Positions 355 through 14,343 of a stretch of DNA of 64,000 bases are shown piece by piece (position 1 is the stretch's first letter; every line of letters begins with the position of its first letter). Source of the stretch: Paracoccaceae bacterium (GTDB lineage Bacteria; Pseudomonadota; Alphaproteobacteria; Rhodobacterales; Rhodobacteraceae). The stretch spans positions 7,419 through 71,418 of the forward strand of contig JBBKWG010000106.1 of NCBI GenBank assembly GCA_037968835.1, read 5' to 3'. A program made the translations under genes and the position numbers. The notes under the pieces were generated by a model. That model was not told the origin of the DNA. It ran no database searches and saw only the letters and a program-made list of their open reading frames with translations.

Positions 355-1644
355 TCAGAGCGGTTGCGTCGTGTAATCCACTTCGTCGGGATAAAGCGTG
401 TCTTCGATCGACGTCGTATGAGCCAGAACCAGCTTACCGCCTTCAGCCCGCGTGATGTACTGGTGTCCGAAAACCTGATGCGTCTTGCCGTTGAAACGCT
501 TTGCGCCCTGCGGATGGTCGAACCCGGCGGGCATGTCCGTCATGGCCTCGACCGCCTCGATCAGTTTGCCGCGATCGTCCGGCCCCGCGTATCCGGCGGT
601 TTCCATCGCGGCCTTCACGACGTGGAGCGTTTCCCAGCACCCGAACATGTGAGAATACGTTGATATGTCCTTGGAGTCGTTTACTGACGCCCCGTTCTCA
701 TCGACACCAACGGCGGCGCGAAATGCCCTGTCGTATTCGGTTTGATCGGCTTGGACATAGCGTGGATTGCCCTCCCAGAAATATGTCCCTTCAAGAAACT
801 CAAGGCCGGGCGAACTCATGTCCACGGCTTCCAGACTGTCGATGAAACCAAACATCTCGGGCCGGCTCGGACCAAAGAATTCGCCGAGTTCCTTGACGAA
901 CGTCAGCACGGCTGGCCCGACCATGACATGGTAAAGCACCTCGGTCTCCCTCGGGATCTTCGGGAAATATTTGGTGAAAGAGGTCTCTGCGGGCGGGATC
1001 GCGATGTGTTCCAGGACTTCACCGCCAGCGGCTTCGATGGCAGCCGTGAAATAGTCGCGATGGTCGTGGCCGAACGCGAAGTCGGGGAAGATCATCGTGA
1101 CTTTCTTGCCGAGGTTCTCGGCCACGAACGGAGCCATCGCCTGAACCTGGCTTCTGACGTCCGTAATTCCCGGCTGAAGCGTGTAGCGGTTCAACATCCC
1201 GGATGCGACGTGATGCCCTTCCGAGACCACGAAATACGGCAGTTTCAGTTCCCCCGCCCGCGGGGCGGAGCCGATCACCACGTGTGAAAACAAGGTGCCG
1301 AAGGCGATGTCGCAATTCGATTGGGTCGCGAACTTCTCGACCACCTCGGCACCGCGCTTGGGATCGGTTCCGTCGTCTTCTGCAACGATCTCGATCATGC
1401 GCCCGTTGATGCCGCCCTCATCGTTGATCTTTTTCACTGCCGCCTGCGTTGTGCGGTCGTACCAACGCCCGTAGGCGGCGCCAATGCCGGTGCGGTGGAC
1501 CTGAAATCCAATCCGGATCGGTCCTGCGGACTGCGCATGGGTATAGCGCGCCCAAAGCGGCAGGGTTGCAGCGGCGACTGCCCCAGCCCCAAGTGTTTTC
1601 AGTGCCGAACGGCGTGTCTGGCCGGTGGTCAATTTCCTGGTCAT
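355..1644 (-). CDS. ABC transporter substrate-binding protein, Leu/Ile/Val (amide/urea)-binding family
   Basis: ORF 355..1722. The likely start is ATG at 1644 (MTRKLTTGQTRRSALKTLGAGAVAAATLPLWA, a Tat-like signal). The periplasmic-binding-fold sequence begins PIRIGFQ. Adjacent to the LivH-like permease. Confidence 0.85.
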   Translation of the reverse strand: MTRKLTTGQTRRSALKTLGAGAVAAATLPLWARYTHAQSAGPIRIGFQVHRTGIGAAYGRWYDRTTQAAVKKINDEGGINGRMIEIVAEDDGTDPKRGAEVVEKFATQSNCDIAFGTLFSHVVIGSAPRAGELKLPYFVVSEGHHVASGMLNRYTLQPGITDVRSQVQAMAPFVAENLGKKVTMIFPDFAFGHDHRDYFTAAIEAAGGEVLEHIAIPPAETSFTKYFPKIPRETEVLYHVMVGPAVLTFVKELGEFFGPSRPEMFGFIDSLEAVDMSSPGLEFLEGTYFWEGNPRYVQADQTEYDRAFRAAVGVDENGASVNDSKDISTYSHMFGCWETLHVVKAAMETAGYAGPDDRGKLIEAVEAMTDMPAGFDHPQGAKRFNGKTHQVFGHQYITRAEGGKLVLAHTTSIEDTLYPDEVDYTTQPL

Positions 1645-1963
1645 GGCTATCCCCTGTCGGTGGTTTTTACGTTGCGTGTCGGCTTTGGCGCGAGTTTGCA
1701 AAGACATGCGCTGCCTGTCCAATTCTTTCTTTCCTCACAGACCCAGCGGCGTCGTAACCCGGGCTGCCAGCCGAGCCGACACAGACATTGGTTTGAGCAA
1801 CCGCGAGTTGGCGAAGAGGACGAAATCGCGCGATATTGCGGTCCGTCCTGCGAAAGCGATGCCAAAAAAAATTCCGAAAGATCAGATTGATCCTCGGCTT
1901 TCATTGACAAACACAGTGCGCGTCGGAACGATCACGGCGCAGGGCGGACGGCGAGGCAGGACC

Positions 1964-4018
1964 ATGGCGACGACATCGGGCGGGCGCATTGCAGGCGTCG
2001 ATGTCGGCGGCACGTTCACGGATCTGATAGCACTCGACCCCGATGGACAGGTTCGACTCGCCAAGGTTCCAAGCACACCCGAAAATCAGGCGTTCGGCGT
2101 CATGTCGGCGCTTGCGGCGGGACATTGCGTGCTGCCCGATCTTGACCTCATCGTTCACGGCACTACGACCACGACCAACGCGGTTCTTGAGCGCAAGCTG
2201 AGCCGGACCGGGCTGATAACGACCGCAGGATTTCGCGACATCCTGGAACTTGGTCGGCGCACCCGTCCTTCGGCTTATGGAATGAAAGGTGAATTCACGC
2301 CGATCATCCCGCGCGATCTGCGGCTGGAGGTTCCCGAGCGGATGGACGCCAGCGGAGAGGTCGTGATCCCGCTCGATGATGATGCCGTGCGCGAGGCGGC
2401 GGAAAGGCTTCGCGATGCCGGGTGCGAGGCCCTCGTCATTCACTTCCTTCACGCCTATGCCAATCCCACTCACGAGCAGCGCGCTGCCGAAATCGTTGCG
2501 CCCTTCTTTCCCGATGGGCATATCACCATGGGGCACGCGCTGTTGTCCGAAAGCCGCGAATTCGAGCGGGGCGTGACGGCTGCGGTCAATGCCAGCGTCC
2601 AGCCTATTCTTGCGCGTTATATCAGGCGCTTGCGGGCCGATCTGAATGACGCTGGCTATCGCGGCGACGTTCTGGTGATGAATGGCAACGGGGGGATGGT
2701 GTCGTCGTCCCGCGTCGCCGAGGAGGCTGCCAAAACCGTCATGTCCGGCCCGGCTTCAGGGGTCATGGCAGCTGCGTTTGTCGGTCGTCAAAGCGGACAC
2801 CGCGACCTGATTACATACGATATGGGCGGCACCTCGACGGATGTGGCGCTGATCCGCGACGCCCGGCCCTCGGTCTCTAACGAAATCGAGATCGAATATG
2901 CAATGCCGATCCACGTTCCGATGGTCGATGTTCGCACCGTCGGTGCAGGCGGCGGTTCGATCGCACGCGTCAATGCGGCCGGATTGCTCGAAGTCGGACC
3001 CCAAAGCGCCGGGGCCGATCCGGGACCGATTTGCTATGGTCGTGGTGGGCGCGAGCCGACGATTTCGGATGCGAACCTGCTGCTTGGCAAACTCGATCCG
3101 TCCAAACTGGCCGTCGCTGGCGGAATTGCGATTGCAGACGTGGAACGGATATTCGCCGCGACAATCGGCGATCCGCTTGGCTTGTCGGCCATCGAAGCGG
3201 CGCGTGCTGTTATTACAGTCGCGAACATCAAGATGGCCGGCGCAATCCGAATGGTATCGGTCTCGCTGGGTGCCGACCCGCGTGATTTCTCTCTGTTCGC
3301 CTTCGGGGGTGCCGGGCCGCTGCACGCAACGGCACTGGCGCGGGAGCTTTCCATCCCCCGCGTCCTCGTCCCTGCCCGCCCCGGTCTGACCAACGCCATC
3401 GGGTGCGTGACGGCCGATTTGCGGCATGATTTCGTGCGCACGATCAATAGGCCGCTCGATGCTCTGGGTGACGGCAGCCTCGCCGCGATATTCGAGGAAC
3501 AGGGCGACCGGGGCCGTGCCATGGTTGATGCCGAGCACATAGCTCTTGATCGCATCGAAACGCATTTGAGCGTCGACATGCAGTATGTCGGGCAGACGCA
3601 TCTTCTGCGGGTCGAAATAGCAGACGCTGCAATCAGCGCCGAAGCACTCCGCTCGTTATTCGAAAAGGTCTATTTCGCGCGATTTCGCGTTTCACTGGAG
3701 GGCATCCGGGTCAGCGTGGTGAACGTCAACTGCTCGGTCGTCGGAGTCCGTCCACCGCTCGACATCACCGCGCTGATTGATCCCGCTGGGCGAAAAGCGA
3801 CGCTTGAGGACGCTATGACGGGCACGCGCACCGTGGTATTCGACGAACCGATTTTCGACACACCGATTTACTGGCGGGATTATCTGCCGCTGGACGCCAG
3901 GCTTCAGGGGCCAGCGGTGATTGAACAGATGGATACCACGATCCTTGTCGAACCGGGGTGCACGGCCATCGGCGATCGGTCTGGAAATATCATGATCGAG
4001 GTGGGGAATGGCGCTTGA
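1964..4018 (+). CDS. hyuA: Hydantoinase/oxoprolinase family protein, A (beta) subunit
   Basis: The start within ORF 1625..4018 was chosen at MATTSGGRIAGVDVGGTFTDL, the canonical Hydantoinase_A N-terminus with a GVDVGGTFTD ATPase motif. 684 aa. Confidence 0.85.
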   Translation: MATTSGGRIAGVDVGGTFTDLIALDPDGQVRLAKVPSTPENQAFGVMSALAAGHCVLPDLDLIVHGTTTTTNAVLERKLSRTGLITTAGFRDILELGRRTRPSAYGMKGEFTPIIPRDLRLEVPERMDASGEVVIPLDDDAVREAAERLRDAGCEALVIHFLHAYANPTHEQRAAEIVAPFFPDGHITMGHALLSESREFERGVTAAVNASVQPILARYIRRLRADLNDAGYRGDVLVMNGNGGMVSSSRVAEEAAKTVMSGPASGVMAAAFVGRQSGHRDLITYDMGGTSTDVALIRDARPSVSNEIEIEYAMPIHVPMVDVRTVGAGGGSIARVNAAGLLEVGPQSAGADPGPICYGRGGREPTISDANLLLGKLDPSKLAVAGGIAIADVERIFAATIGDPLGLSAIEAARAVITVANIKMAGAIRMVSVSLGADPRDFSLFAFGGAGPLHATALARELSIPRVLVPARPGLTNAIGCVTADLRHDFVRTINRPLDALGDGSLAAIFEEQGDRGRAMVDAEHIALDRIETHLSVDMQYVGQTHLLRVEIADAAISAEALRSLFEKVYFARFRVSLEGIRVSVVNVNCSVVGVRPPLDITALIDPAGRKATLEDAMTGTRTVVFDEPIFDTPIYWRDYLPLDARLQGPAVIEQMDTTILVEPGCTAIGDRSGNIMIEVGNGA

Positions 4019-5762
4019 TCCGATAACCCTTTCCGTCATTCAGGCCGGACTACAGCAGGTTTGCGACGAAATGGACCTGACGTTCTCGCGCGCCGCGTTC
4101 TCTCCTGTCATTGCCGAGGCCAACGACAGGTCGGACGGAATTTATGCAGCGGATGACGGCTCGCTGATCGCTCAGGGCGCGGGCGGCTTGCCGGTGTTTG
4201 TCGGGACCATGCAATATTCGACCCGCTGCCTGATCGAAATGATCGCGGATGGCCGCGTTGCCGCACCGCGCCCCGGCGACATCTACATCGTCAACGATCC
4301 GTATCTTGGCGGAACCCATCTGATGGATGTCCGGTTCGCGCGACCATTCTACCGGGACGGACGGATTTTCTGCTGGCTGTCCAACACCGGCCACTGGCCC
4401 GATACAGGCGGCGCGGTTCCCGGCGGATTCTCGGCTTCAGCCACCGCTGTCGAACAGGAGGGGCTTCGATTGCCGCCGGTTCGATTGTTCAAGGAAGGCG
4501 TACTGGACACCGAGATCTATTCGATCATCTGCTCCAACATCCGGGTTGCCGATCAGCGGATCGGGGACGTCAAGGCGCAGGCGGCAGCGTTGCTTGTCGG
4601 CGAGGAGCGGCTCGACGCTTTGCTCGACCGCTATGGCGACGCGGTTGTGTCGGAAGCAATCGGGGAACTGCGCGTGCGCGCGTGCGATCAGATGCGCAGT
4701 TTCATCGCCGCCACACCGGACGGCGAATACGAGAGCGTTGCATGGATCGACAGCGATGGTGTGGTCAACGAGCCTTTGGCAATACGTCTGAGAGTGACAA
4801 TCGCCGACGAAACGGTCGTCTTTGATTTCTCGGGCTCTAGTCCGCCCTGCCGGGGTCCGATGAACTCTGTCAGGGCAACGACGCTATCGTCGGTATATCT
4901 AGCGGTCCGCCACATCTTTCCAGAGGTTCCGATCAGCGCCGGGGCATTCGATCCCCTTCAGATCGTCGGCATCAAGAATACGTTTCTCGACGCAGAATAT
5001 CCGCGCCCGGTGTCGGGGTGTGCGGCCGAGGTATCGCAGCGGATCGCGGAAGCTGTTTTTGCCGCACTGGTGCAGGCGCTGCCGGACCGGGTGACTGCGG
5101 CCCCCGCCGGGACAAGCGGGAATTTCGCACTTGGCGGACATGACCCCGCGCGCGGCCGGGATTTCGTGATGTATCAGCTATCTGGCGGCGGCTACGGCGG
5201 CAATTCCGACCATGACGGGCTGACCAACGGATGTTCGACGATCGGCATTTCCAAGGCCCCTCCCGTCGAAATCATGGAACAGGCGTTTCCGGTCCTCTAC
5301 CACCGCTACGCCTTGCGCGAAGGGTCCGGCGGCGCGGGGCGACACCGGGGTGGGTTTGGGCTCGACTATGAACTGGAAATTCGCCGGGGAACCGCGCAGG
5401 CGAGCTTCGTAATGGATCATGGGCGTTTCGGTCCGCAGGGCGCCCTTGGCGGCATGGACGGGGCGAAGAACGAAGTCACTGTCTGGCAGGACGGCGCGTC
5501 GTATGTCCCGGTTCATCTGTCCAAAGAGCAAGACATTCCGCTGCGCGCCGGCGACCGGGTTCGGGTCCGAACGCCTGGCGGCGGTGGCTACGGCGATCCA
5601 ATGACGCGGTTACCCGACGCCGTCGCAGAGGATGTCAGACTCGGGCGGTACACGCGGGATGAAGCTAAACGGTTGTTCGGGGTCGTCATCGGCGAGGATT
5701 TGGGCGTCGACAAGAACGCCACCGAAATCCTCCGAAAGCAGATCGCCAGTTCGGGTCCCTAG
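4008..5762 (+). CDS. hyuB: Hydantoinase B/oxoprolinase family protein
   Basis: 584 aa. The N-terminus MALDPITLSVIQAGLQQVCDEM is typical of Hydantoinase_B. It overlaps the hyuA stop by 11 nt, suggesting an operon. Confidence 0.85.
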   Translation: MALDPITLSVIQAGLQQVCDEMDLTFSRAAFSPVIAEANDRSDGIYAADDGSLIAQGAGGLPVFVGTMQYSTRCLIEMIADGRVAAPRPGDIYIVNDPYLGGTHLMDVRFARPFYRDGRIFCWLSNTGHWPDTGGAVPGGFSASATAVEQEGLRLPPVRLFKEGVLDTEIYSIICSNIRVADQRIGDVKAQAAALLVGEERLDALLDRYGDAVVSEAIGELRVRACDQMRSFIAATPDGEYESVAWIDSDGVVNEPLAIRLRVTIADETVVFDFSGSSPPCRGPMNSVRATTLSSVYLAVRHIFPEVPISAGAFDPLQIVGIKNTFLDAEYPRPVSGCAAEVSQRIAEAVFAALVQALPDRVTAAPAGTSGNFALGGHDPARGRDFVMYQLSGGGYGGNSDHDGLTNGCSTIGISKAPPVEIMEQAFPVLYHRYALREGSGGAGRHRGGFGLDYELEIRRGTAQASFVMDHGRFGPQGALGGMDGAKNEVTVWQDGASYVPVHLSKEQDIPLRAGDRVRVRTPGGGGYGDPMTRLPDAVAEDVRLGRYTRDEAKRLFGVVIGEDLGVDKNATEILRKQIASSGP

Positions 5763-5885
5763 TCAGACCACCATGCAGAATGCTGCCGCGCAGATTTCGC
5801 CGCCGGCGGTTGGTGTGGCCATCAGGACAAGAACGAGCGCTCCGAGCATCGTCGCCGCAAGAAATAAAAGTCTATTTTCCAGCAT
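5763..5885 (-). CDS. Hypothetical 40-aa peptide with signal-peptide-like N-terminus and a C-x4-C tail
   Basis: Own translation: MLENRLLFLAATMLGALVLVLMATPTAGGEICAAAFCMVV. GGGAGA sits 5 nt upstream of the ATG. It is below the ORF-track size cut-off and lies downstream of the regulator on the same strand. Confidence 0.3.
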   Translation of the reverse strand: MLENRLLFLAATMLGALVLVLMATPTAGGEICAAAFCMVV

Positions 5886-5945
5886 CGTAGTCTCCCAATC
5901 ATCTAAAATTGGACCGGTCAGTTGGAAATTCGCTGGCCGAAACGT

Positions 5946-5973
5946 AAAAAATCAATCCTTACCGCGGCTAAGG
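5946..5973 (-). terminator. Weak rho-independent terminator candidate after the regulator gene
   Basis: The minus strand reads CCTTA-gccgcgg-TAAGG, then attga, then TTTTTT. The stem is only 5 bp and the T-run is offset. Confidence 0.3.
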
Positions 5974-5976
5974 GGT

Positions 5977-7614
5977 TCAGCCACTCAGCGCCATCAATTT
6001 GTCGCCGTCCAGCAACCCGCTCCAGCGAAGGGGTGAAATCGGGTAATGTGCATCGTTTGCCATGCGCTCAAACGAGAAATCAGGCTCCAACTTGCGCAAA
6101 CGATTGGCGACGCGCACCGCGGCCTCGGGCCGGTCGGCGGAGGCGTAAAGCGCCGTCAGATAACGCAGGGGCGGGCGGAAATCGGGCGACATCGCGTGCG
6201 CGGCCTCGGCCAGTTTCAGGGCTTCTTCTCCCCTGCCCGTCAGAGCCGCTGTCAGGCAGCGTCCCATGTCCCACCAGAACCCAAAGGGCGACCCGACGCT
6301 GATGCGCTGTGCCCGCACCGCAAGGGCGTGCGCTTCGCTGAGTTGGCCGGCATAAAGTTTCGCTGTTGAAAGGCTGTCCCACGCCAGAGGATTCGCAGGG
6401 TTCAGGTTGACAGAACGGCGCGCGAGTTCATTGCAGGCGCTGACATCGTCATCCAGAACCAGTCGAGTATTGGCGACGGTAGCCAGAACCATCGAGTTCA
6501 GAGGTTCCAGTTCCATTGCATGTTTACAGAATGCCCGCGCTTCCTCGTCAAGTCCGTCCGAGCGGTCGGGGTGGCGTTCCACTTCCTGAATGACACGCAA
6601 TTGCGCCCGCCAAGCGAGTGCCAGCGCGCGCGGCGAAAGATCGAAAGCTTGCTCCAGCATCTTGTCGGCTTCCGACAAGGCATCCGGGCGCATCTGGAAA
6701 ATCCGTCGCACCGCCAGCCTGATCAGAAGGTTGGCATCCCTGACGTCGGCAGTGTCTTCGACGCGGATTGTCAACGCGTCGGCAAGCGCGTCGATCAACT
6801 GGTTGCCAAGGGAGACGACCTCCAGATCCTCGACCGGTGGCGCGCCATGCAATTGCGTGGATGTCATTCCCGCCCAGATCAACTCTGTCGACGCGCCCTG
6901 GTTAATTCTCGCGCGCAGTCCGACACGCGCCCTGTCGACGGTGTATGCCTGCACCTCGACGCGGAACGCGTCTTTGGGATGGCTGGCAGCATCGCCAACG
7001 CGCACATCGACGGTCAGGGTTTCACGCAAACTGCGCACCACACAGTCGACAAAGATGTCCTCGATCAACTGAAGATGGTTCTTGTCCTGGCTTTTAGTCA
7101 CGAAGATGATCGTCGGTCGCTCGGGCCGACGCGAGGTATTCGCGAGCAAGACGCTCGGCATCGCCAAATCGGCCTTGAACCGCTCTCTTGAAAGCCAGTC
7201 CGGCAATTCGTGATCGCCGTCAATCAGCGCAATGCCTTCGAGGAACTCTTCGTTCTCCCCGGCCGGAACCAGAAGCAGGGCATCCAGAACAAGTTTTACG
7301 CTGCGCCTGTCGGCGTCCAGGAGCGTCCCGAATTCACCAAGCGCGCGGCGGATTTCACTCAACGCTTGCCTCAGACTGACCGCGGATTTTTCACGCGGGC
7401 GATCCGGCCAGAGTTTGTTCTGAAGCCAAAGCCGACCCCGACTGCCGGTCTCGCTGGTCGCAAGAAGCGCCAGAATCGCCTGAGACTTCGCACTATTTGG
7501 CGCAAGATCCTTGCCATCGGGGGATTCAAAGCGAAACCTTCCAAAGAGAGACATTTCTGGCAGCTTGCGCCCGGTCGCCGTCATCGCCTTTACGCTCCTT
7601 GTCTTCCCGGCCAA
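5977..7614 (-). CDS. Transcriptional regulator: N-terminal OmpR/SARP-type winged helix plus C-terminal TPR repeats
   Basis: 545 aa. The N-terminal segment LFGRFRFESPDGKDL...SKSQAILALLA...LWPDRPREKSAVSLRQALSEIRRALG resembles a Trans_reg_C/BTAD wHTH. The C-terminal 200 aa are TPR-like helical repeats. No P-loop is visible. An alternative start is ATG 7554 (MSLFGRF). Confidence 0.7.
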   Translation of the reverse strand: MAGKTRSVKAMTATGRKLPEMSLFGRFRFESPDGKDLAPNSAKSQAILALLATSETGSRGRLWLQNKLWPDRPREKSAVSLRQALSEIRRALGEFGTLLDADRRSVKLVLDALLLVPAGENEEFLEGIALIDGDHELPDWLSRERFKADLAMPSVLLANTSRRPERPTIIFVTKSQDKNHLQLIEDIFVDCVVRSLRETLTVDVRVGDAASHPKDAFRVEVQAYTVDRARVGLRARINQGASTELIWAGMTSTQLHGAPPVEDLEVVSLGNQLIDALADALTIRVEDTADVRDANLLIRLAVRRIFQMRPDALSEADKMLEQAFDLSPRALALAWRAQLRVIQEVERHPDRSDGLDEEARAFCKHAMELEPLNSMVLATVANTRLVLDDDVSACNELARRSVNLNPANPLAWDSLSTAKLYAGQLSEAHALAVRAQRISVGSPFGFWWDMGRCLTAALTGRGEEALKLAEAAHAMSPDFRPPLRYLTALYASADRPEAAVRVANRLRKLEPDFSFERMANDAHYPISPLRWSGLLDGDKLMALSG

Positions 7615-7629
7615 GCGGAAATATCTCGC

Positions 7630-7644
7630 TTAACCCAAGGTTAA
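7630..7644. promoter_or_regulatory. Perfect CtrA-type box TTAA-N7-TTAA (TTAACCCAAGGTTAA)
   Basis: Read directly in the divergent control region between the regulator and the PAP2/S8 operon. It matches the alphaproteobacterial CtrA consensus TTAA-N7-TTAA(C). It is also a 6-bp inverted repeat, TTAACC/GGTTAA. Confidence 0.4.
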
Positions 7645-7676
7645 TTTGACCACGATTTGGTAACAGATTCAAGAAA

Positions 7677-7726
7677 TTCACAAACCGGATCACGAAATCG
7701 GCCCTTTCGTGAATACAACGTGAAAA
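7677..7726. promoter_or_regulatory. Nested inverted-repeat operator candidate
   Basis: The element reads TTCACAAA-ccgga-TCACGAAA-tcggccc-TTTCGTGA-atacaa-CGTGAAAA. The inner 8-bp arms are perfect (7690-7697 and 7705-7712). The outer arms share TTCAC/GTGAA. It lies about 80-130 nt upstream of the PAP2 ATG. Confidence 0.35.
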
Positions 7727-7806
7727 TCCATGGCCCACAGGTGAGCGGTGTTGAACAGCGCAAACCTTTAGTCTTTCCTGACTTGGAAATAATCGGGGGA
7801 TTGCGA

Positions 7807-8913
7807 ATGTCCGAATACGGAAAAGGCCAAGGCAAAGGTCAGGGAAAGGGTCAGGGCAAGGGTCAGGGCAAGGGTCAGGGGAAAGGCCAGGGCAAGGGCC
7901 AAGGCAAAGGTCAGGGCACCGATCACGCCGGTGGCGAGGCTTCTGGTTCGCTTAGCTCGGCTCTCATCACCAGCCACGACGGCATCGTCGGATATTGGGA
8001 TGGAATGCCATTGCGCCGACCAGCCCCGCTTGGCCGGTCGGATACTGATCTCAGCTACCTTTCGGGCGAAATCCGGGGCGATTTGCTGGATTCGATCCTG
8101 ACACCGAACCTTACGATGTCGGGACAAGACGGCACCGCCACAATCTCGGCTCGCGGCAATCTGCTTCTCACACTCAACCGACCGGCTTCCGCAGTATTTC
8201 GTCACCAACTTCCTATGGTGCGCGCATATTCCGATCTTCGCGACGATCGCATTCTCGAGATACTCCACCAGACCGAAGACCTGCTGTCGTTCTTCGGTGC
8301 GCTTGCCTATCTCAGCCCCGAACGGTGCGGCAGAACGCTTGAGGTTATGGCGGCGGCGGTCCGGCTTGCGGTCCATGTCGAAATGCCCCTCAAGCATTTT
8401 TGCCGCTCCCCGCGACCAATCGACTATGCCACCCAAATTCAGCCGATCGTCCAGACGCCGGATCACTCCAGCTTCCCTTCCGGGCACGCCATCGAAGTTT
8501 TCGCGGCGGCCACCGTGATGACGCGCCTGTTGACGGGAAAGGGTCCCAAAGCCGCGCTTACCGGCAGCGATCGGACTGCCGCGATGCCCTTCAAACTTGC
8601 CCATCGGATTGCGACGAACCGCAGCATCGCGGGCGTTCATTTCCCGGTCGATTCCGCCGCAGGGGCAGTTGTCGGCTGTCTTGTTGGCGAAACGGTCTAT
8701 CAGATTGCGACCGGGACGGACGAGATGGATTGGCCGGCGCCACGGGATCTGACGTTCGATTTGAGCGACGACGAGGCCGCGGCTTTCGACCTTACGCTCG
8801 TCTGGTTGCGTGACACGTTGGGCGATGATGCGACTGAAACGGAACCTGGCGACAATATTCTGGGAGCATTGTGGAAAAAAGCCGCCGAGGAATGGACGGA
8901 AGCCGCGGCATGA
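7807..8913 (+). CDS. PAP2 (acid phosphatase / vanadium haloperoxidase) superfamily protein, apparently soluble, with N-terminal (GKGQ)x8 tail
   Basis: All three PAP2 motifs are present: KHFCRSPRP (K-x6-RP), PSGH, and NRSIAGVHFPVD (R-x5-H-x3-D). I see no clear signal peptide or long hydrophobic helices. The start was chosen at ATG 7807 (MSEYGKGQ), preceded by GGGGGA. Confidence 0.75.
   Translation: MSEYGKGQGKGQGKGQGKGQGKGQGKGQGKGQGKGQGTDHAGGEASGSLSSALITSHDGIVGYWDGMPLRRPAPLGRSDTDLSYLSGEIRGDLLDSILTPNLTMSGQDGTATISARGNLLLTLNRPASAVFRHQLPMVRAYSDLRDDRILEILHQTEDLLSFFGALAYLSPERCGRTLEVMAAAVRLAVHVEMPLKHFCRSPRPIDYATQIQPIVQTPDHSSFPSGHAIEVFAAATVMTRLLTGKGPKAALTGSDRTAAMPFKLAHRIATNRSIAGVHFPVDSAAGAVVGCLVGETVYQIATGTDEMDWPAPRDLTFDLSDDEAAAFDLTLVWLRDTLGDDATETEPGDNILGALWKKAAEEWTEAAA
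7819..7914 (+). repeat. Eight tandem 12-nt units encoding GKGQ, imperfect at synonymous sites
   Basis: Read directly: gga aaa ggc caa / ggc aaa ggt cag / gga aag ggt cag / ggc aag ggt cag (x2) / ggg aaa ggc cag / ggc aag ggc caa / ggc aaa ggt cag. Confidence 0.95.
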
Positions 8914-10919
8914 CACTTCGCTGGACCAATTGGTGCGACGATCCATCCGCCGATACCGGCATATCGCCCTACGTCGACTGGCTGCGAACCGCGACGTTCG
9001 AGGGCAAGGAAGTGCACGAGGGCCTGTCGCTGGCGCCGCTTCCGCTGCCGAAGAGTGTGACCAAAGGGAATTCTGACCAGTCGCACGGCAATTCGCGATC
9101 CGTGCCTGCCCCATTGCCCGAATTTGCGCGACCCGGCCAGTCGCGATCACCGCAGACGGACCCTCAGATCTCTCTGACTTGGATGCCTGACGCGGATTCG
9201 ACAATTATCGGATTGATCGACAGCGCCATCGCCCTTGCCCACGCGCGGTTTCGACGGATCGACGGGGGAACGCGCGTCCTTTCAGCCTGGTTGCAGGCCG
9301 GTGAATGGCGCGACCCGGCCGCGGTTCCATTCGGTCGCGAGCTATTTCGCACGGAGATCGACCGATTGATGTGGCGCGCGACGCTTGGCGGGGCCATCGA
9401 CGAAGACGCGTTTGACCGCTCGGCGGGGCTGACGCAATTTCACCACCCGCGGGGCGATCGACGCCTGAACGAGAATGCCACTCACGGAACCCACGTCGGA
9501 GATCTGGCGGCGGGATTTGAACTTCGCGATTCCAGCGCGGACGAGGCGCGCCGTCGTTTGCCGATCATCGCAGTCGGGCTGCCGCCACGCGCGTGCATCG
9601 GCGCGTCCGGAAACTTTCTGGAATTCTATGCAATTCACGCGGTGGACTACATCATTGATCGTGCCGACCGGATCTGGAGTGCCTGTGGTTACGGCGATGG
9701 CGGCTTTCCGATTGTGATCAACCTGTCCTACGGACTTCAGGCCGGGCCGAAGGATGGACAAAAGCTTATCGAAAAGGTCATTCGCGTCGCCACTGAGCGG
9801 GCGGAAACCGAAGGCCGTCCGATCCGGGTCGTCCTGCCAGCGGGAAATGACCTTTTGTCCGAGGGCGCAGCCGATTTCCGGGTAAGCGCAAGTCAGAAGG
9901 TCGACCTCGACTGGCGGATCAGGCCGGGCGACCACACCCCGAATTATGCCGAGATCTGGTCGGATGTGATTGCTGGCAAGGCGCACAAGAAGGCGTCGCA
10001 CCCACTGACGGTTTCGCTCGCTCCTCCCGGTGGGCCTGCGGGGCCAAACGGCGCGGGAAAAGCCGGGCAGATAGCCACGCTGATTGACGATGCCGACCCC
10101 AACACGCCGCTGGCGAAAATCTACTGCCGCCTCCACGACAACACGCCGTTGCATGGGTCTCCGGGCTCGCCTTGGCACAGGCTGGTCTATGTCTTGTGCA
10201 CGCGTCAAACCCTTGGCAACAGCATTTCGCCAACGTCACCGGCGGGGCGGTGGGCGATCTCGGTTTCTCCAAACGGGAATGAAGCCCAACGCGGGTTCGC
10301 GTATGTTCAGTCCGATCAAAGCCTGACATTCGGCAGCGAAACCGGGCTTGTGTCGTCGTTTGCGCACCCGGAATTCGAAGCCGACGACGAAAGCGGGCGT
10401 CCGATCGACGCGTGGTCTTATCCGACGGATGACACCGCGCCGGTTCTGACCGATACGACGCCGCCTATGATGCGCCGTGGGACGCTGAACGCGATCGCAT
10501 CGAGCAATAGTGTGCGCGTTATCGGAAGCTATCGGCGCACGGACGGCGCACCCTCGGTTTTTTCCAGCGCTGCCTCTTCCGGCGCAGTTGGAAATGGCCG
10601 CGCCGCACCAACAGCCCTTCTCCCAGGCGACGACGGTGCGGCGCGGTTCGGTCTGATGGCAGCAGGATCGCGGAGTGGCTCGGCGGCGGTGATGCAAGGC
10701 ACGAGTTTTTCCACAGCACTTGCCACGCGGCGCATTGCTTTGGCGATGCTCGAATGGATCGACACGGGATGCGTCGGCGAAGCGCCGGGCAGCGAAACGT
10801 GGTTTCAGGCAATGGCCATGCAAGACGAGTTGTCGCTCGGCTATCCCGGTAAAGTCATGGCGGAGAAGGCCGGTGCCGGAAGGCTGGCAGCGCCAGCAAC
10901 AGGACGAATGCCTCGCTGA
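8910..10919 (+). CDS. S8 family serine peptidase (subtilase), no evident signal peptide
   Basis: The catalytic residues appear in subtilase order: Asp in IGLIDSAI, His in NATHGTHVGD, Asn in VLPAGND, Ser in MQGTSFSTA. ATG 8910 overlaps the PAP2 stop (ATGA), indicating translational coupling. 669 aa. Confidence 0.8.
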   Translation: MTLRWTNWCDDPSADTGISPYVDWLRTATFEGKEVHEGLSLAPLPLPKSVTKGNSDQSHGNSRSVPAPLPEFARPGQSRSPQTDPQISLTWMPDADSTIIGLIDSAIALAHARFRRIDGGTRVLSAWLQAGEWRDPAAVPFGRELFRTEIDRLMWRATLGGAIDEDAFDRSAGLTQFHHPRGDRRLNENATHGTHVGDLAAGFELRDSSADEARRRLPIIAVGLPPRACIGASGNFLEFYAIHAVDYIIDRADRIWSACGYGDGGFPIVINLSYGLQAGPKDGQKLIEKVIRVATERAETEGRPIRVVLPAGNDLLSEGAADFRVSASQKVDLDWRIRPGDHTPNYAEIWSDVIAGKAHKKASHPLTVSLAPPGGPAGPNGAGKAGQIATLIDDADPNTPLAKIYCRLHDNTPLHGSPGSPWHRLVYVLCTRQTLGNSISPTSPAGRWAISVSPNGNEAQRGFAYVQSDQSLTFGSETGLVSSFAHPEFEADDESGRPIDAWSYPTDDTAPVLTDTTPPMMRRGTLNAIASSNSVRVIGSYRRTDGAPSVFSSAASSGAVGNGRAAPTALLPGDDGAARFGLMAAGSRSGSAAVMQGTSFSTALATRRIALAMLEWIDTGCVGEAPGSETWFQAMAMQDELSLGYPGKVMAEKAGAGRLAAPATGRMPR

Positions 10920-10942: not shown

Positions 10943-12571
10943 TCAGGTCTGCGACCCAAGCGCCCTGACTTGCTCGCGAAGCAGGAACTTCTGGATCTTT
11001 CCGGTGGCAGTCTTTGGCAACTCGCCAAAAATTACCGACTTTGGCGTCTTGAAACCGGCTAGATTCTCGCGGCACCAGCCAATCAGTTCGGCCTCACCGG
11101 TCGCCGAGCCGTTGCGCAGTTCCACGAACGCACAGGGCGTTTCGCCCCATTTGTCATCTGGTCGCGCCACGACGGCGGCAGCGGTCACGTCCGGGTGGCG
11201 ATAAAGCACGGCCTCGACCTCGACACTCGAAATATTCTCGCCACCCGAGATGATGACGTCTTTCAAGCGGTCGCGGATCTGGATGTATCCGTTTTCGTGC
11301 ATGACCGCCGCATCGCCCGACCAGAAATAGCCATCGGCAAACGCCTCGTCTGTCGCGTCGGGGTTTTTCAGATAGCCGGCCATGATCGTGTTGCCGCGAA
11401 TTGCGATCTCGCCCTGCGTCGCGCCATCCGCCGGAACATCTTTTCCGGTTGTCCTGTCGATAACGCGTAGTTCCTCGACCATCGGGAAGGAAATGCCCTG
11501 ACGCGCCTGCATTTCCGCCTGCTCTGAAAGCGGCAAACCGCCCCATTTCTCCTGCCAGAGACATTGCGCGATGTGTCCGTAGGTTTCGGTCAGTCCGTAA
11601 GCCTGCATGATCGTCATGCCGATCCGGCCCGCCCGTTCCAGAACCGCCGGCGGTGGGGGTGCGCCAGCCGTCATCGCCTTGACCGGTGGATCAAAGGGCA
11701 TTTTCGGGGCGTCCGGGCTATCGGCCATCATCTGCAGAACGATTGGCGCCGCGCCAAGGTGCGTCACGCCTTCTTCCTTGATCGCACGAAACAGCTTTGC
11801 GGGCGCTGCGTCGCGCGTGAACACCATGCGCCCGCCGACGATCGGAACCAGCCAGGGGTGGTTCCAGCCATTGCAGTGAAACATCGGCACAACCGACAGG
11901 TAAACCGGACGGTGGGGGACATCCCATCCCGCGACGGTTCCAAGCGCCATCAGATAGGCACCCCGGTGGTGATAGACCACGCCCTTTGGTCGCCCGGAGG
12001 TTCCCGACGTGTAGTTCAACGCGATTGCATTCCATTCGTCGTCGGGAAGCCGCCAGTCCGAGAGCGGGTCCCCCTCGGAAACAAGCGCCTCGTAATCGGA
12101 CTGACCAAATCCTTCGGCGCTGTCCGGCCGAGCATCTACAATATCCACAACCGGGATTTCGCGCCCGAGGATGCTGAAAGCACTGCGCAGCAATCCGGCA
12201 AACGCGGTGTCGGCAAAAATGATCTTCGCTTCGCCGTGATCGAGAATATAAGCGATCGTTTCGGGTTCCAGCCGGATATTTATCGAGTTCAAGACCGCAC
12301 CGGCCATTGGCGCGGCATAGTGAAGTTCGAACAACTCGGGAATGTTCGGCGCAAGAACCGATACCGTGTCACCGGGCGCGATTCCGCGTGATCGAAGCGC
12401 TGATGCGAGCGAACGGCATCTTGCGGCGGTTTCAGACCACGTGCGGCGGATCGAGCCATAGCCGACTGCTTCGTCGTCGCCGTATACGAATGCCGCGCGC
12501 TTCAGGAACGAGATTGGCGTCAATGGAACGTAGTTTGCGGCCACGCGCCCGAAACTGTCTGCTGCCGACAT
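10943..12571 (-). CDS. AMP-dependent acyl-CoA synthetase/ligase
   Basis: AMP-binding motif YTSGTSGRPKGV. The start was chosen at MSAADSFGRVAANYVPLTP (ATG 12571) within ORF 10943..12715. Confidence 0.85.
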   Translation of the reverse strand: MSAADSFGRVAANYVPLTPISFLKRAAFVYGDDEAVGYGSIRRTWSETAARCRSLASALRSRGIAPGDTVSVLAPNIPELFELHYAAPMAGAVLNSINIRLEPETIAYILDHGEAKIIFADTAFAGLLRSAFSILGREIPVVDIVDARPDSAEGFGQSDYEALVSEGDPLSDWRLPDDEWNAIALNYTSGTSGRPKGVVYHHRGAYLMALGTVAGWDVPHRPVYLSVVPMFHCNGWNHPWLVPIVGGRMVFTRDAAPAKLFRAIKEEGVTHLGAAPIVLQMMADSPDAPKMPFDPPVKAMTAGAPPPPAVLERAGRIGMTIMQAYGLTETYGHIAQCLWQEKWGGLPLSEQAEMQARQGISFPMVEELRVIDRTTGKDVPADGATQGEIAIRGNTIMAGYLKNPDATDEAFADGYFWSGDAAVMHENGYIQIRDRLKDVIISGGENISSVEVEAVLYRHPDVTAAAVVARPDDKWGETPCAFVELRNGSATGEAELIGWCRENLAGFKTPKSVIFGELPKTATGKIQKFLLREQVRALGSQT

Positions 12572-12735
12572 GAGTTCTCCCCGGTTCGAATATGACCCGC
12601 AAAAACGGGATCTGCGGATCATGTCACAAGAATTTTTCTGTTGCATATGATTCGTGGCGTATATGCTGCAGTTGCCAAGTAATGGGATGCCTGCTTTCTT
12701 GCGGCAAATAATCAAAAGTTCAGGGAGAACTAAAA

Positions 12736-14343
12736 ATGGATAAGAAATCCTACATCAGGACACAGGCACTTCGCCTGACCAAAGGCGAAATCAACCGACG
12801 CCGCTTCATCATGTCGGCGCTCGCAACAGGCGTGACGCTACCGACAGCGATGTCTTTGGCTGGCCGCGCTCAAGCGATGACACCCAAGTCCGGCGGATTG
12901 TTCCGCATGGCTGTCGGGCACGGGTCGACGACGGACTCGATTGATCCCGCGACTGCCGAGAACGATTTCACGACGACCGTGCTATATTCGCGCGGCAACC
13001 ACTTGACCGAGGTTTCCAACACTGGCGAGCTGGTGCCCGATCTTGCGGAAAACTATGAAACCGACGACGCGAAAACCTGGGTCTTCAATCTTCGCCCGGG
13101 CGTAGAATTCCACAACGGCAAGACGCTGACCCCGGAAGATGTCATCGCGACGCTGAACTACCATCGCGCCGAAGATTCAAAGTCTGCGGCAAAGGGCCTG
13201 GTCACCCAGATCCTCGACATCCGCAAGGACGGCGACAATCAGGTCGTGATCGAACTCGAGGCCGGCAACGCCGACTTCCCGTTTATTCTGTCGGATTATC
13301 ACCTGATGATCATGTCGTCGGAAGACGGCGCGGTTGACGGTCAGGCGCAAGACAACGGCACCGGTGGCTACATCGTCCAGAACTACGAGCCAGGTGTTCG
13401 TTCGACTTTCTCGCGCAACCCGAACTACTTCAAAGAGGGTCGCGCCCACTTCGACAACGTCGAGATCTATTCGATCCTCGACACAACCGCGCGCCAGAAC
13501 GCCGTGATGAACGGCGATGTGGAGTATTCGGGCGATATCGATCCAAAGACCGTTGCGCTTCTTGGCCGCGTGCCAACGCTCGACATCCTGGAATCGACAG
13601 GCACCCAGCACTACACGTTCCCGATGCGCCTTTCGGTCGAGCCGTTCGGCAACTACGACCTGCGCATGGCCCTAAAGTATGCGATCAAGCGTCAGGAACT
13701 GGTCGACAAGATCCTGCTTGGCCACGGCACTCCGGGCAACGACGTCCCCGTCAACGCGTCGATGCCGTTCTTCAACACAGAGCTTCCGGTGCACGAATTC
13801 GATCCCGAGAAAGCCGCGGAGCACTACAAGAAGTCCGGCCACTCTGGTCCGATCCAGCTTTCAGCAGCCGATGCGGCCTTCGCGGGCGCGGTTGATGCGG
13901 CCCAGCTTATCGCTGCATCCGCCAAAGATGCCGGCATCGACATCGAAGTCGTGCGCGAGCCGTCCGATGGCTATTGGTCGAACGTCTGGAACAAGAAGGG
14001 CTGGTGCGCCTGTTACTGGTCGGGTCGCCCGACGCAGGACTGGATGTATGCCTCTGCCTACACCAACGACACCGAATGGAACGATACCGCCTGGACCGAC
14101 ACCGAAGCGGCAAATCAGTTCAACGAAGTGGTCGTATCGGCGCGTTCGGAAACCGACGACGCCAAGCGCAAGGATCAGTACTGGGAAGCACAGCGGCTGT
14201 TGCAAGACGACGGCGGCGCAATCGTCAGCATGTTCGCGAATTACATCGCGGCCCATGCCAAGACGCTGGCTCACGACGAATCCGTGGCCGCGAACTGGGC
14301 AAACGACGGCAACAAGGCGCAAGAGCGCTGGTGGTTCGCCTAA
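12736..14343 (+). CDS. ABC transporter substrate-binding protein, family 5 (peptide/nickel/opine type)
   Basis: 535 aa with a Tat-type signal (RRRFIMSALATGVTLPTAMSLAGRAQA) and a DppA/OppA-like body. Confidence 0.85.
   Translation: MDKKSYIRTQALRLTKGEINRRRFIMSALATGVTLPTAMSLAGRAQAMTPKSGGLFRMAVGHGSTTDSIDPATAENDFTTTVLYSRGNHLTEVSNTGELVPDLAENYETDDAKTWVFNLRPGVEFHNGKTLTPEDVIATLNYHRAEDSKSAAKGLVTQILDIRKDGDNQVVIELEAGNADFPFILSDYHLMIMSSEDGAVDGQAQDNGTGGYIVQNYEPGVRSTFSRNPNYFKEGRAHFDNVEIYSILDTTARQNAVMNGDVEYSGDIDPKTVALLGRVPTLDILESTGTQHYTFPMRLSVEPFGNYDLRMALKYAIKRQELVDKILLGHGTPGNDVPVNASMPFFNTELPVHEFDPEKAAEHYKKSGHSGPIQLSAADAAFAGAVDAAQLIAASAKDAGIDIEVVREPSDGYWSNVWNKKGWCACYWSGRPTQDWMYASAYTNDTEWNDTAWTDTEAANQFNEVVVSARSETDDAKRKDQYWEAQRLLQDDGGAIVSMFANYIAAHAKTLAHDESVAANWANDGNKAQERWWFA

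Follow-up and report, generated by a model that had tools for sequence, protein, structure and literature searches.

In the RRNPP systems of Firmicutes and their phages (Rap/Phr, PlcR/PapR, NprR, Rgg and AimR) an output, either a helix-turn-helix (HTH) of the XRE type or an enzyme such as the Rap phosphatase, is fused to a TPR-type peptide sensor, and the peptide that is sensed is encoded next door. These peptides are lineage-specific and are matured by proteases including subtilisins, starting from a small, secreted, single-copy pro-peptide whose product is re-imported via Opp. Multi-core precursors are known as well, such as the cyanobactin precursor PatE, which is cut by PatA and PatG, and the fungal ustiloxin-type repeats, which are cut by Kex2. 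Class A acid phosphatases, on the other side, are periplasmic enzymes of about 230 residues that carry a signal peptide. Here we describe a three-gene locus in a stretch of 64,000 nucleotides from contig JBBKWG010000106.1 of a Paracoccaceae bacterium (hereafter the window), which recalls each of these systems and also the Csp proteases studied in clostridial spore germination. It encodes a sensor-regulator with a C-terminal TPR domain (gene 1), an enzyme of the PAP2 family with a perfect peptide repeat at its N-terminus (gene 2) and a subtilase of the S8 family (gene 3, here called S8). Among the Csp proteases, CspB retains its prodomain, which is inhibitory, and activates the zymogen pro-SleC by cleavage (PMC3567191). 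The prodomain and a central jellyroll, which in CspB has nine strands and about 130 residues and lies within the subtilase domain, are the two defining features of this group (PMC3567191).

The first-pass annotation of the window had taken the regulator and the coupled PAP2/S8 pair for an undescribed module, and the comparison with other genomes bears this out; all the refuting conditions set there (no synteny, a known pathway, signal peptides or membrane helices) turned out in favour of the claim, the last of them by a crude hydropathy test. A search with the subtilase retrieved about 120 relatives, mostly in metagenome-assembled genomes (MAGs) of marine Rhodobacterales, the closest being those of Silicimonas and Boseongicola MAGs (56-66% S8 identity). 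A scan of one genome per species returned 137 relatives among 185,579 species, of which 80 loci were kept; as it used two peptide patterns, this number undercounts distant members. With three plasmid records and a Boseongicola homologue represented by two contigs, the loci examined come to 85. A PAP2 homologue lies directly upstream of the S8 gene in all of them save one contig that begins inside S8 (81/82 among the first 82), and directly upstream of the PAP2 gene all 83 loci in which this could be seen have a sensor-gene homologue, the other two being cut by contig ends. The sensor gene is divergent from the PAP2-S8 pair in 41 loci, as in the window, and co-directional with it in 42. The hosts are alpha- and betaproteobacteria and one Anaerolineae MAG. 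When all neighbouring open reading frames (ORFs) were clustered, the next commonest family after the trio occurred in only 12 loci, and the flanking genes vary: a hydantoinase and an acyl-CoA synthetase in the window, chemotaxis genes, ABC transporters or a glycogen-branching enzyme elsewhere. Megablast found no close DNA relatives on plasmids; the protein search then found trios on a conjugative plasmid of Phaeobacter inhibens and on plasmids of Roseibium aggregatum and Pontibrevibacter nitratireducens. The family of the PAP2 partner is not small, since a profile search yielded 843 clusters (50% identity) at E <= 1e-30, and two of its more distant members, from Ruegeria and Hoeflea, again belong to full trios. 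No known system was matched: NCBIfam gave only far-sub-threshold matches for the trio proteins, none of the three proteins matched PADLOC-DB 2.0 at E <= 0.1, and literature queries that included the literal repeat strings found nothing on the trio. We have little doubt that the trio is a real module and forms one autonomous signalling unit.

The most distinctive feature of the family is the repeat tail of the PAP2 protein, which had been suspected from the start as a possible substrate. In the window it consists, as first counted, of exactly eight GKGQ units (7819..7914, plus strand), which follow the leader MSEY and are predicted to be disordered (pLDDT, the per-residue confidence of the model, is below 50 for residues 1-39 of the protein). 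The eight identical peptide units are written by six different 12-mers. A perfect array of this kind is present in all 63 PAP2 ORFs that could be analysed, that is, those with an intact and unmasked 5' end. It is always at the 5' end of the PAP2 gene, one array per locus, where it follows the initiator Met and up to about 16 residues and precedes a helix with the pattern ALIxxxDGIVGxW. The unit has a period of 2 residues in 9 of these ORFs, of 3 in 40 and of 4 in 14, and is present in 3-22 copies (median 10), so that the tail takes up the first 20-50 residues of the protein. The unit itself differs between lineages. Rhodobacterales carry GKGQ, GRGQ, GNGQ, GGGQ, GKGS or GQ, Microvirga carries GGV, GGI or GGL, and GGA is the unit of Tardiphaga, Paraburkholderia and some of the Bradyrhizobium loci. 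Where Bradyrhizobium and relatives have winged-helix loci, SGD, SSD, SGE, GSE and SAE are found. Further units are SGV, TGV, SGA, SGI, SGH, GGH, GGF, GGN, LEG, DAN, NSF, NGI and NAE, and other family members carry GGGAG, GSGAG, AGGAG, AGDGG, QAH, GPGT, AGGH and the 8-residue AGSHGGGL.

The DNA of these arrays is far from uniform. At the first, second and third positions of the codon the units differ at rates of 1.2%, 0.3% and 64%, respectively, so that third positions hold 97.7% of the differences at a mean DNA identity between units of 78%; twelve GGV units can be encoded by twelve different 9-mers. Such synonymous scrambling implies that selection acts on the peptide repeat itself. Moreover, in a pair of close relatives with (GKGQ)7 and (GRGQ)7 all seven lysines have been replaced, with the arginines written as AGA, CGT and CGC. 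The restriction of variation to third positions and the mixed arginine codons mean that the array is translated and old and that every unit is kept identical by selection; they rule out recent replication slippage and untranslated DNA. A collagen-like or polyglycine-II structural tail does not fit either, because periods other than 3 and units free of glycine (SSD, SAE, DAN, NSF, QAH) occur. Since the units are kept identical despite saturated codon scrambling and yet differ by lineage, each unit appears to be read by something sequence-specific. We know of no bacterial enzyme family with arrays as perfect, codon-scrambled and lineage-specific as these.

In protein databases the array is largely invisible, because most public records start the PAP2 protein after it: only 22 of 235 public homologues (P0121-P0355) include an array, and most gene calls begin downstream. 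Two records that seemed to be array-less, P0202 and P0239, have in-frame arrays upstream of their annotated starts, (GPGT)x6 and (AGGH)x8, respectively (L086:5809-7095 and L087:5725-6870). The lack of arrays from PAP2 records is a systematic misannotation of start codons. Two assemblies of the same Boseongicola locus differ in this region (L002:1850-2140 versus L001:8860-9060) by clustered substitutions, one of them giving a stop, within and just upstream of the first units, which split the PAP2 call into ORFs of 77 and 324 residues; this looks like an assembly error in one of them.

Gene 1 (5977..7584, minus strand) had been read as a 545-residue ORF from a TTG at 7614. The ORF stands, and the ATG at 7584 is the better start because it is preceded at 9 nucleotides by the Shine-Dalgarno sequence AAGGAG and agrees with the public call of 535 residues (P0356). 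The protein, numbered here on the 545-residue frame, can be divided into three parts. The C-terminal TPR sensor domain (5980..6702, about residues 305-545) gives weak Pfam matches that fall below the cut-off in the window protein alone (E about 1e-3); a profile of 33 family members (A3), however, strongly matches TPR structures at positions 345-510, and the TPR repeats of the first-pass annotation are thereby confirmed. The winged helix (7255..7554, about residues 21-120) is not detected by Pfam in the window protein alone either. The family profile matches ToxR in its winged helix (E = 3.3e-5) and also AfsR (E = 5e-4), and Trans_reg_C is found in homologues, at E = 4e-14 in Phaeobacter (L084) and at 2e-3 to 5e-3 in two others (L035 and L023); window residues 43-109 align with this region of the Phaeobacter protein. 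Thus, of the OmpR/SARP-type winged helix that had been proposed, the ToxR/OmpR type holds and the SARP type does not, as the BTAD domain that SARP proteins carry behind the winged helix was matched neither by the window protein nor by any of 11 homologues. Between winged helix and TPR lies a middle domain similar to FlgO and the N-terminal domain of TolB (6715..7125, about residues 164-300, with approximate boundaries), for which weak PF17680 matches are found in cyclase-type and Kiloniella homologues.

The middle domain and the TPR domain are common to all partners: window residues 164-520 align to both the divergent and the co-directional type, and the middle domain is shared by winged-helix-type and cyclase-type proteins. 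What changes is the N-terminus. In divergent loci it is a winged helix; most of the co-directional proteins sampled have a class III cyclase domain instead (PF00211, Guanylate_cyc, down to E = 1e-9), and the co-directional gene 1 of Phaeobacter has a winged helix, not a cyclase. In an alignment of the cyclase versions the Asp pair that binds metal, the Lys/Asp pair of adenylate cyclases and the Asn/Arg motif all seem preserved, these roles being those generally known for class III cyclase motifs. Gene 1 is thus, as predicted from its domains, a one-component signal transducer in which the middle and TPR domains are constant and the output is interchangeable. The term regulator therefore describes the window protein, with its DNA-binding winged helix, and has to be widened to a modular sensor, which in about half of the loci has adenylate cyclase output.

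A candidate target of the winged helix lies in the region between genes 1 and 2. This region had been given as 192 bp and rich in symmetric elements. It measures 222 bp once gene 1 starts at the ATG, and its only perfect 8-nucleotide inverted repeat (0.10 expected, P = 0.08) is neither significant nor conserved in relatives, so that palindromes were dropped as operators; a conserved direct repeat was found instead. This repeat, CGTGAAT-ACAA-CGTGAAA (7708..7725, plus strand), resembles a Pho box, with 7-bp repeats at a period of 11 bp. Both GTGAA half-sites are invariant in an alignment of 10 intergenic regions, and GTGAA-N6-GTGAA occurs once in the 64-kb window as compared to 0.09 expected. 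The repeat is found about 100 nucleotides upstream of the PAP2 start, at the same position, in 26 of the divergent winged-helix-type loci fetched, among them loci of the Bradyrhizobium type, where the regulator shares no more than about 30% identity with that of the window; at this position it is absent from the cyclase-type loci. Seven-base repeats at an 11-bp period (7+4+7) are the Pho-box layout used by winged helices of the OmpR/PhoB type, and the repeat is the probable operator of the winged-helix protein. The same alignment of 10 regions shows two further conserved boxes, TTGACCACG (7646-7654) and TTCAAGAAA (7668-7676), both on the plus strand, which may be promoter or operator elements.

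In the co-directional loci a different wiring is suggested by a Crp-type gene (cNMP_binding plus HTH_Crp_2), which lies beside the module in 8 of 42 of them, in at least four lineages, and beside none of the 41 divergent ones. Palindromes like the CRP site (TGTGA-N6-TCACA with at most 1 mismatch) occur within 350 nucleotides upstream of 5 of 36 cyclase-type modules (L045, L059, L062, L076 and L077), where a rough estimate of the chance number is about 0.4; these sites hint at a feedback of cyclic AMP (cAMP) and Crp on the operon. From the operator on one side and the association of cyclase and Crp on the other we infer that both versions of gene 1 end in transcriptional control, either directly or via cAMP-Crp. 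In carrying one or the other of these outputs, and in the 7+4+7 operator, gene 1 resembles cyclase-TPR/Crp systems and the ToxR, OmpR and PhoB activators. Different from these, it has neither a receiver domain nor a membrane anchor and is tied to PAP2-S8 in every case examined. A membrane-anchored, ToxR-like topology with the TPR domain in the periplasm was rejected, as the crude hydropathy test showed no hydrophobic segment in the protein.

The subtilase encoded by gene 3 (8910..10919, plus strand; 669 residues) matches PF00082 at E = 5.8e-9 (36.1 bits, cut-off 21.8). Its catalytic set is intact, as the first reading of the sequence had it: D104 (9219-9221), H192 (9483-9485), the oxyanion residue N271 (9720-9722) and S599 (10704-10706) are all present. 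Asp, His and Ser are kept in 78 of 78 full-length homologues and Asn in 74; none of the 78 is thus a pseudoprotease of the kind represented by CspC, and S8 looks like a catalytically intact subtilase. The AlphaFold2 model (pLDDT 84.9, predicted template modelling score 0.90) has its best Foldseek match in the Protein Data Bank (PDB) with CspB of Clostridium perfringens (4i0w, E = 1e-20, TMt 0.72), followed by 9pr9, 6mw4 and 9pr8; CspA and CspC of C. difficile are likewise top matches. The Csps score between E = 1e-20 and 1e-16 over about 580 alignment columns, and the next subtilases are fourteen orders of magnitude weaker, with PatA at E = 5e-4. The model and the Foldseek alignment further show a prodomain-like alpha/beta region (8910..9194, about residues 1-95) and a jellyroll-like beta insertion in the middle of the subtilase domain (9867..10319, about residues 320-470), with nine predicted strands in residues 320-467. 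S8 is accordingly predicted to have the architecture of the Csp germination proteases, with which it shares the lack of a signal peptide besides the prodomain-like region, the nine-strand insertion and the structural match that is best by a wide margin. As in the case of CspB and pro-SleC, it is encoded beside a candidate protein substrate with an N-terminal extension.

The likeness is one of structure rather than of sequence, which is negligibly similar: S8 scores 28.6 bits with the NCBIfam model CspBA (cut-off 1250) and 14.7 bits with CspC (cut-off 675) and hence is no member of the Csp sequence family. Nor are the circumstances those of the Csps, in that the hosts are non-sporulating Proteobacteria plus the one Anaerolineae MAG, the partner is a PAP2 enzyme and not a cortex hydrolase, and the triad is kept throughout the 78 homologues. 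That a subtilase should lack a signal peptide had been regarded as an anomaly of the locus. With an architecture predicted to be that of the intracellular Csp proteases this is not odd in itself; what is odd is that such an architecture occurs outside spore formers.

Gene 2 (7807..8913, plus strand; 368 residues, with GGGGGA upstream of the ATG) encodes a PAP2 protein (PF01569, E = 3.7e-17, 62.7 bits, cut-off 27.2). The catalytic signature is complete, as had been claimed, with K196-x6-R203-P204, P224-S-G-H227 and R272-x5-H278-x3-D282 (8392..8652); the residue preceding R272 is Asn and not the Ser of the (S)RX5HX3D motif. In 43 homologues the catalytic residues do not vary, except for S225 and G226, which are kept in at least 90%, and a regular expression for the motifs matches 81 of 86 loci, the misses being truncations or spacing variants. 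The family has two further invariant motifs of its own, DLRxDRxxEI and QTPDHS. In the AlphaFold2 model (pLDDT 87.7) the disordered tail is followed by a family-specific N-terminal subdomain (7942..8187, residues 46-127), which starts with the conserved ALIxxxDGIVGxW helix, and by a helical core. The best PDB matches of the core are class A acid phosphatases, 7f17 (E = 1e-5) and then PhoC, PhoN and the E. blattae enzyme. Precomputed public Pfam annotation lists PF22778 (VCPO_2nd) for PAP2 homologues, but vanadium haloperoxidase structures match the core less well, at E of at least 0.085. The PAP2 part of the proposed PAP2/haloperoxidase fold has thus been upheld, and the core is nearer to the soluble class A acid phosphatases than to the haloperoxidases, although the reaction itself may be that of a phosphatase, a phosphotransferase or a haloperoxidase. 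Judged by this model, the protein looks like a soluble, catalytically intact enzyme of the acid phosphatase type. With PhoN, PhoC, EB-NSAP and 7f17 it shares the soluble all-helical core and the three PAP2 motifs; it differs from them in the lack of a signal peptide and in having the extra subdomain, the repeat tail and the two family motifs.

No export signal was found in the PAP2 protein, its N-terminus being the polar GKGQ array, and by the same crude test, hydropathy in place of SignalP, none of the three window proteins has a hydrophobic N-terminus. The maxima in 19-residue windows are 0.98, 1.44 (the PAP2 protein) and 1.20 for the products of genes 1, 2 and 3, all below the membrane-helix threshold of 1.6, which agrees with the earlier statement that signal peptides and membrane helices are lacking. 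The sole sign of export in the family is P0125, a 482-residue protein from a metagenome in which a signal-peptide-like N-terminus, a stretch rich in Gly, Arg and Gln, and EF-hands precede a GQ array and the PAP2 domain; it is either a real fusion or a read-through from the upstream gene. Another record, P0199, is a PAP2 homologue with a glycine-rich N-terminus, which comes from a 1-kb contig deposited under the name of the alga Chrysoparadoxa australica and is probably bacterial contamination of the eukaryotic assembly. At their C-termini the PAP2 proteins carry a conserved (A/E)EW. The S8 C-terminus (window 10866-10916) has a conserved basic motif, GAGRL...GR..R, in which G655, R658 and R669 are invariant or nearly so, and many S8 proteins end at this last Arg. 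Either of these ends could be a docking motif for the TPR domain.

Genes 2 and 3 are coupled in the window by the stop/start overlap ATGA (8910..8913), at the place where it had been reported, and ORF coordinates suggest the same 4-nucleotide overlap in many other Rhodobacterales loci; other clades have short gaps. The surroundings of the trio are ordinary. Its flanks (1625-5762, plus strand, and 10943-12715, minus strand) hold catabolic genes, named in the first-pass annotation as hyuA/hyuB (hydantoinase/oxoprolinase-like) and an acyl-CoA synthetase-like gene, which are not conserved beside the module elsewhere. A neighbouring 40-residue ORF (5763-5885, minus strand), put forward at first as a possible peptide precursor and substrate, is conserved in none of the related loci and was rejected. 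An antisense ORF of 478 residues (7768-9204, minus strand) covers the PAP2 gene, with a hydrophobic LALTLALT stretch that mirrors the GKGQ array; high G+C content has produced this artefact, which misled simple ORF clustering. In 7 loci a gene for a peptide-binding protein of the Opp/Dpp type (SBP_bac_5) follows S8, among them the window (12736-14343, plus strand), L001:12225-13835, L006:10242-11852 and the betaproteobacterial L057:5955-7526, where it overlaps the S8 stop. This adjacency could be due to chance, such genes being abundant in these genomes, or to a link with peptide transport. Two copies of the same Boseongicola locus (L001 and L008) have a Hint_2 protein of about 205 residues and an 80-residue ORF just downstream of the regulator (L001:5966-6840, minus strand); the Hint_2 family occurs somewhere in 9 Rhodobacterales loci, is absent from the window and stands outside the conserved trio.

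How then might the three proteins work together? The reading we prefer, although only tentatively, is that of a cytoplasmic signalling and processing module in which the tail is processed by S8 and the outcome is read by the TPR sensor. Like CspB, the Csp-like protease would be restrained by its prodomain, and once triggered by a signal would cut the repeat tail of its coupled PAP2 partner in the way CspB cuts pro-SleC. Cleavage would alter the state of the phosphatase and release identical short peptides or a tail fragment, and the TPR sensor of gene 1 would read the event by binding the tail or its fragments. The output would be transcription of the operon in the winged-helix type or cAMP in the cyclase type, closing a feedback loop, and, with units that differ between lineages, each module would be reserved for its own partners. 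The reading is favoured by the strict co-occurrence of the genes in changing contexts, the constant sensor with its swapped output, the operator, the selected tail, the intact Csp-like protease and the lack of export signals and membrane helices by hydropathy. As to its separate parts, that S8 acts on the tail has nearly an even chance of being right, and that the TPR domain reads the tail or its peptides is a guess we would make with some reserve.

Several observations weigh against this reading, foremost the pattern of charges. Within the Rhodobacterales clade the PAP2 core has a net charge of about -15 in proteins with basic tails and of about -7 in those with neutral tails (Mann-Whitney p = 0.0075, with phylogeny ignored). 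Proteins with acidic tails have near-neutral cores (p = 0.054), and the total charge of the PAP2 protein is about -4 to -7 in all tail classes. In a neighbour-joining (NJ) tree of the clade neutral and basic tails are interspersed, and lineages with neutral tails mostly have less acidic cores than their basic neighbours, with some overlap, as in the sister pair L023 (GQ, core -2) and L027 (GKGS, core -15). The pattern is therefore probably not one inherited split. It favours a tail that for part of the time stays joined to its own enzyme and perhaps rests on it. By contrast, the net charges of the TPR domain and of S8 do not track that of the tail (p = 0.32 and 0.45, respectively). These charges speak for contact between tail and core in cis rather than for binding of the tail by the TPR domain, and are the main point against a simple electrostatic recognition of the tail by the sensor. 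In addition, unit lengths of 2, 3, 4, 5 and 8 residues are hard to reconcile with one protease specificity, no resemblance was seen between the end of the S8 prodomain and the repeat unit, and the conserved phosphatase chemistry is assigned no defined role. Finally, that all three proteins are cytoplasmic is how it appears from a crude hydropathy test.

The same charges support the strongest rival, a plain zymogen in which the tail masks the PAP2 core, removal of the tail by S8 switches the phosphatase on and gene 1 senses something else, such as a metabolite or the product of the phosphatase. The core compensates for the charge of the tail, and does so with tail types interspersed in the tree, while the total charge is steady in all tail classes; the PAP2 and S8 genes overlap by ATGA; and a protease that activates its partner enzyme has its precedent in the Csp and pro-SleC pair (PMC3567191). 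However, a mask or a single cleavage site has no need of 3-22 perfect units under saturated synonymous divergence, neutral tails such as GGV and GGA cannot work electrostatically, and no reason is given why one sensor domain is retained in 83 of 83 loci with different outputs attached to it. We regard this explanation as possible but doubtful.

A more specific form of the reading in which the sensor follows the cleavage is that of a cytoplasmic peptide second messenger: a signal-gated protease would chop the array into 3-22 identical peptides of 2-8 residues, which would be the private ligands of the TPR domain. By analogy with pherotypes, the diversification of the units (GKGQ, GQ, GGV, GGA, SGD, NSF, AGGH and GPGT among others) would then create orthogonal channels, in this case intracellular and in Proteobacteria. 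We consider it unlikely in this strict form. The range of unit lengths argues against S8 being an exopeptidase that measures off dipeptides or tripeptides as by a ruler, since units of 2, 3, 4, 5 and 8 residues do not allow for a fixed step.

If the units are not cut at all, they might dock two or more TPR sensors on one tail, as a multivalent scaffold, and S8 would merely end the signal by degrading the tail. The identity of the units, each of them under selection, would suit such a role, as would the fact that both outputs depend on dimers: class III cyclases need dimers for their active sites, and winged helices would sit in tandem on the direct repeat. Tail length, moreover, is held at roughly 18-48 residues across the different units, for example as eight copies of GKGQ or 16-22 copies of GQ in related lineages. 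Against this, the charge of the TPR domain does not follow that of the tail, and the TPR repeats differ from one another, so that a matching of registers is not implied. We think it quite improbable that this is what the tail is for.

The locus also invites comparison with the two kinds of system that make peptides from precursors. Like an RRNPP system it joins a TPR sensor with an output to an adjacent, lineage-specific candidate peptide, the sensing of peptides being our inference here. Unlike in RRNPP systems the output is a winged helix instead of an XRE domain, and what might serve as the peptide comes in multiple copies, forms part of an enzyme and is devoid of an export signal; no conserved small ORF was found at the loci, and SBP_bac_5 is adjacent in 7 of them only. 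With the multi-core precursors the trio shares tandem identical short cores in one product and a serine protease in the cluster. But there are no leader or recognition sequences between the units and no recognisable tailoring enzymes or exporter, as there would be in precursors of peptides that are made on ribosomes and modified after translation (RiPPs), and the units, of 2-8 residues and often mostly glycine, sit on an enzyme of 330 residues next to an S8 that is only weakly PatA-like. These comparisons bear on the view that S8 cuts the array and that the units, perhaps after modification by PAP2, leave the cell as a RiPP-like product or a quorum-sensing-like signal to be sensed or imported by other cells. 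Multi-copy precursors cut by subtilases do exist, in the cyanobactin and ustiloxin-type pathways, and the SBP_bac_5 gene after S8, in the window as in L057 with its overlap, would fit the import of peptides. A protease that cuts repeat precursors uniformly, WprP2, has also been reported (PMC12957482). On the other hand, neither a transporter nor a leader or recognition sequence accompanies the module as a conserved element, the units abut without flanking sites, and S8, with E = 5e-4 for PatA as against 1e-20 for Csp, is far nearer to the latter. There is little information in units like GQ or GGA, and genes for SBP proteins are very common in these genomes. We consider export of the units very unlikely.

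The first-pass annotation had also raised the possibility of a conflict or anti-phage system with protease and phosphatase, or haloperoxidase, as effector pair and the cyclase or winged-helix protein as sensor. The patchy distribution of the trio, its varying contexts and its carriage on plasmids, one of them conjugative, are what might be expected of such a system, and the combination of a cyclase with effectors superficially recalls cyclic-nucleotide defence. Different from Pycsar- and CBASS-like systems, however, neither PAP2 nor S8 has a domain that would bind or sense a cyclic nucleotide, and the window version has no cyclase. The cyclic-nucleotide receiver that does occur nearby is a transcription factor of the Crp type, the winged-helix version has a putative autoregulatory operator, the neighbours are metabolic, chemotaxis or transport genes and not defence genes, and no trio protein has a match in PADLOC. 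The proposal has found no support, and there is scarcely any likelihood left to it. That the genes are unrelated neighbours encoding envelope enzymes, with a repeat that is slippage-prone low complexity or untranslated DNA, might be read from the public calls, just 22 of 235 of which include the array, but is already refuted by synteny in 83 of 83 loci, by an open array frame with ATG and Shine-Dalgarno just upstream, by the 97.7% of differences at third codon positions, by the in-frame arrays upstream of array-less annotated starts and by the lack, in the crude hydropathy test, of signal peptides and membrane helices.

Neither the preferred reading, with processing of the tail by S8 and sensing by the TPR domain, nor any of its rivals explains the perfect identity of the units or the purpose of the phosphatase chemistry. 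Nevertheless, with no match in PADLOC, NCBIfam or the literature, and with the marks of both the RRNPP systems and the multi-core precursors lacking, we place the trio outside the described kinds of system. If only an activation step in the style of Csp and SleC is shown, it would be a variant of that kind. Should the units turn out to be private ligands, the family would offer orthogonal pairs of peptide and sensor as tools.

Taken together, the trio adds to bacterial signal transduction a conserved and apparently undescribed three-gene module, whose folds are known and whose combination is as yet unexplained. With it the Csp architecture, studied until now in the germination of clostridial spores, reaches into Proteobacteria that do not sporulate. 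Hosts that live with plants, algae or animals are frequent (Bradyrhizobium, Microvirga, Rhizobium, Tardiphaga, Paraburkholderia, Caballeronia, Phaeobacter, Silicimonas and Roseibium), though this is an anecdotal impression. That many of them, several culturable, live with plants or algae suggests a possible ecological link of the module to this way of life.

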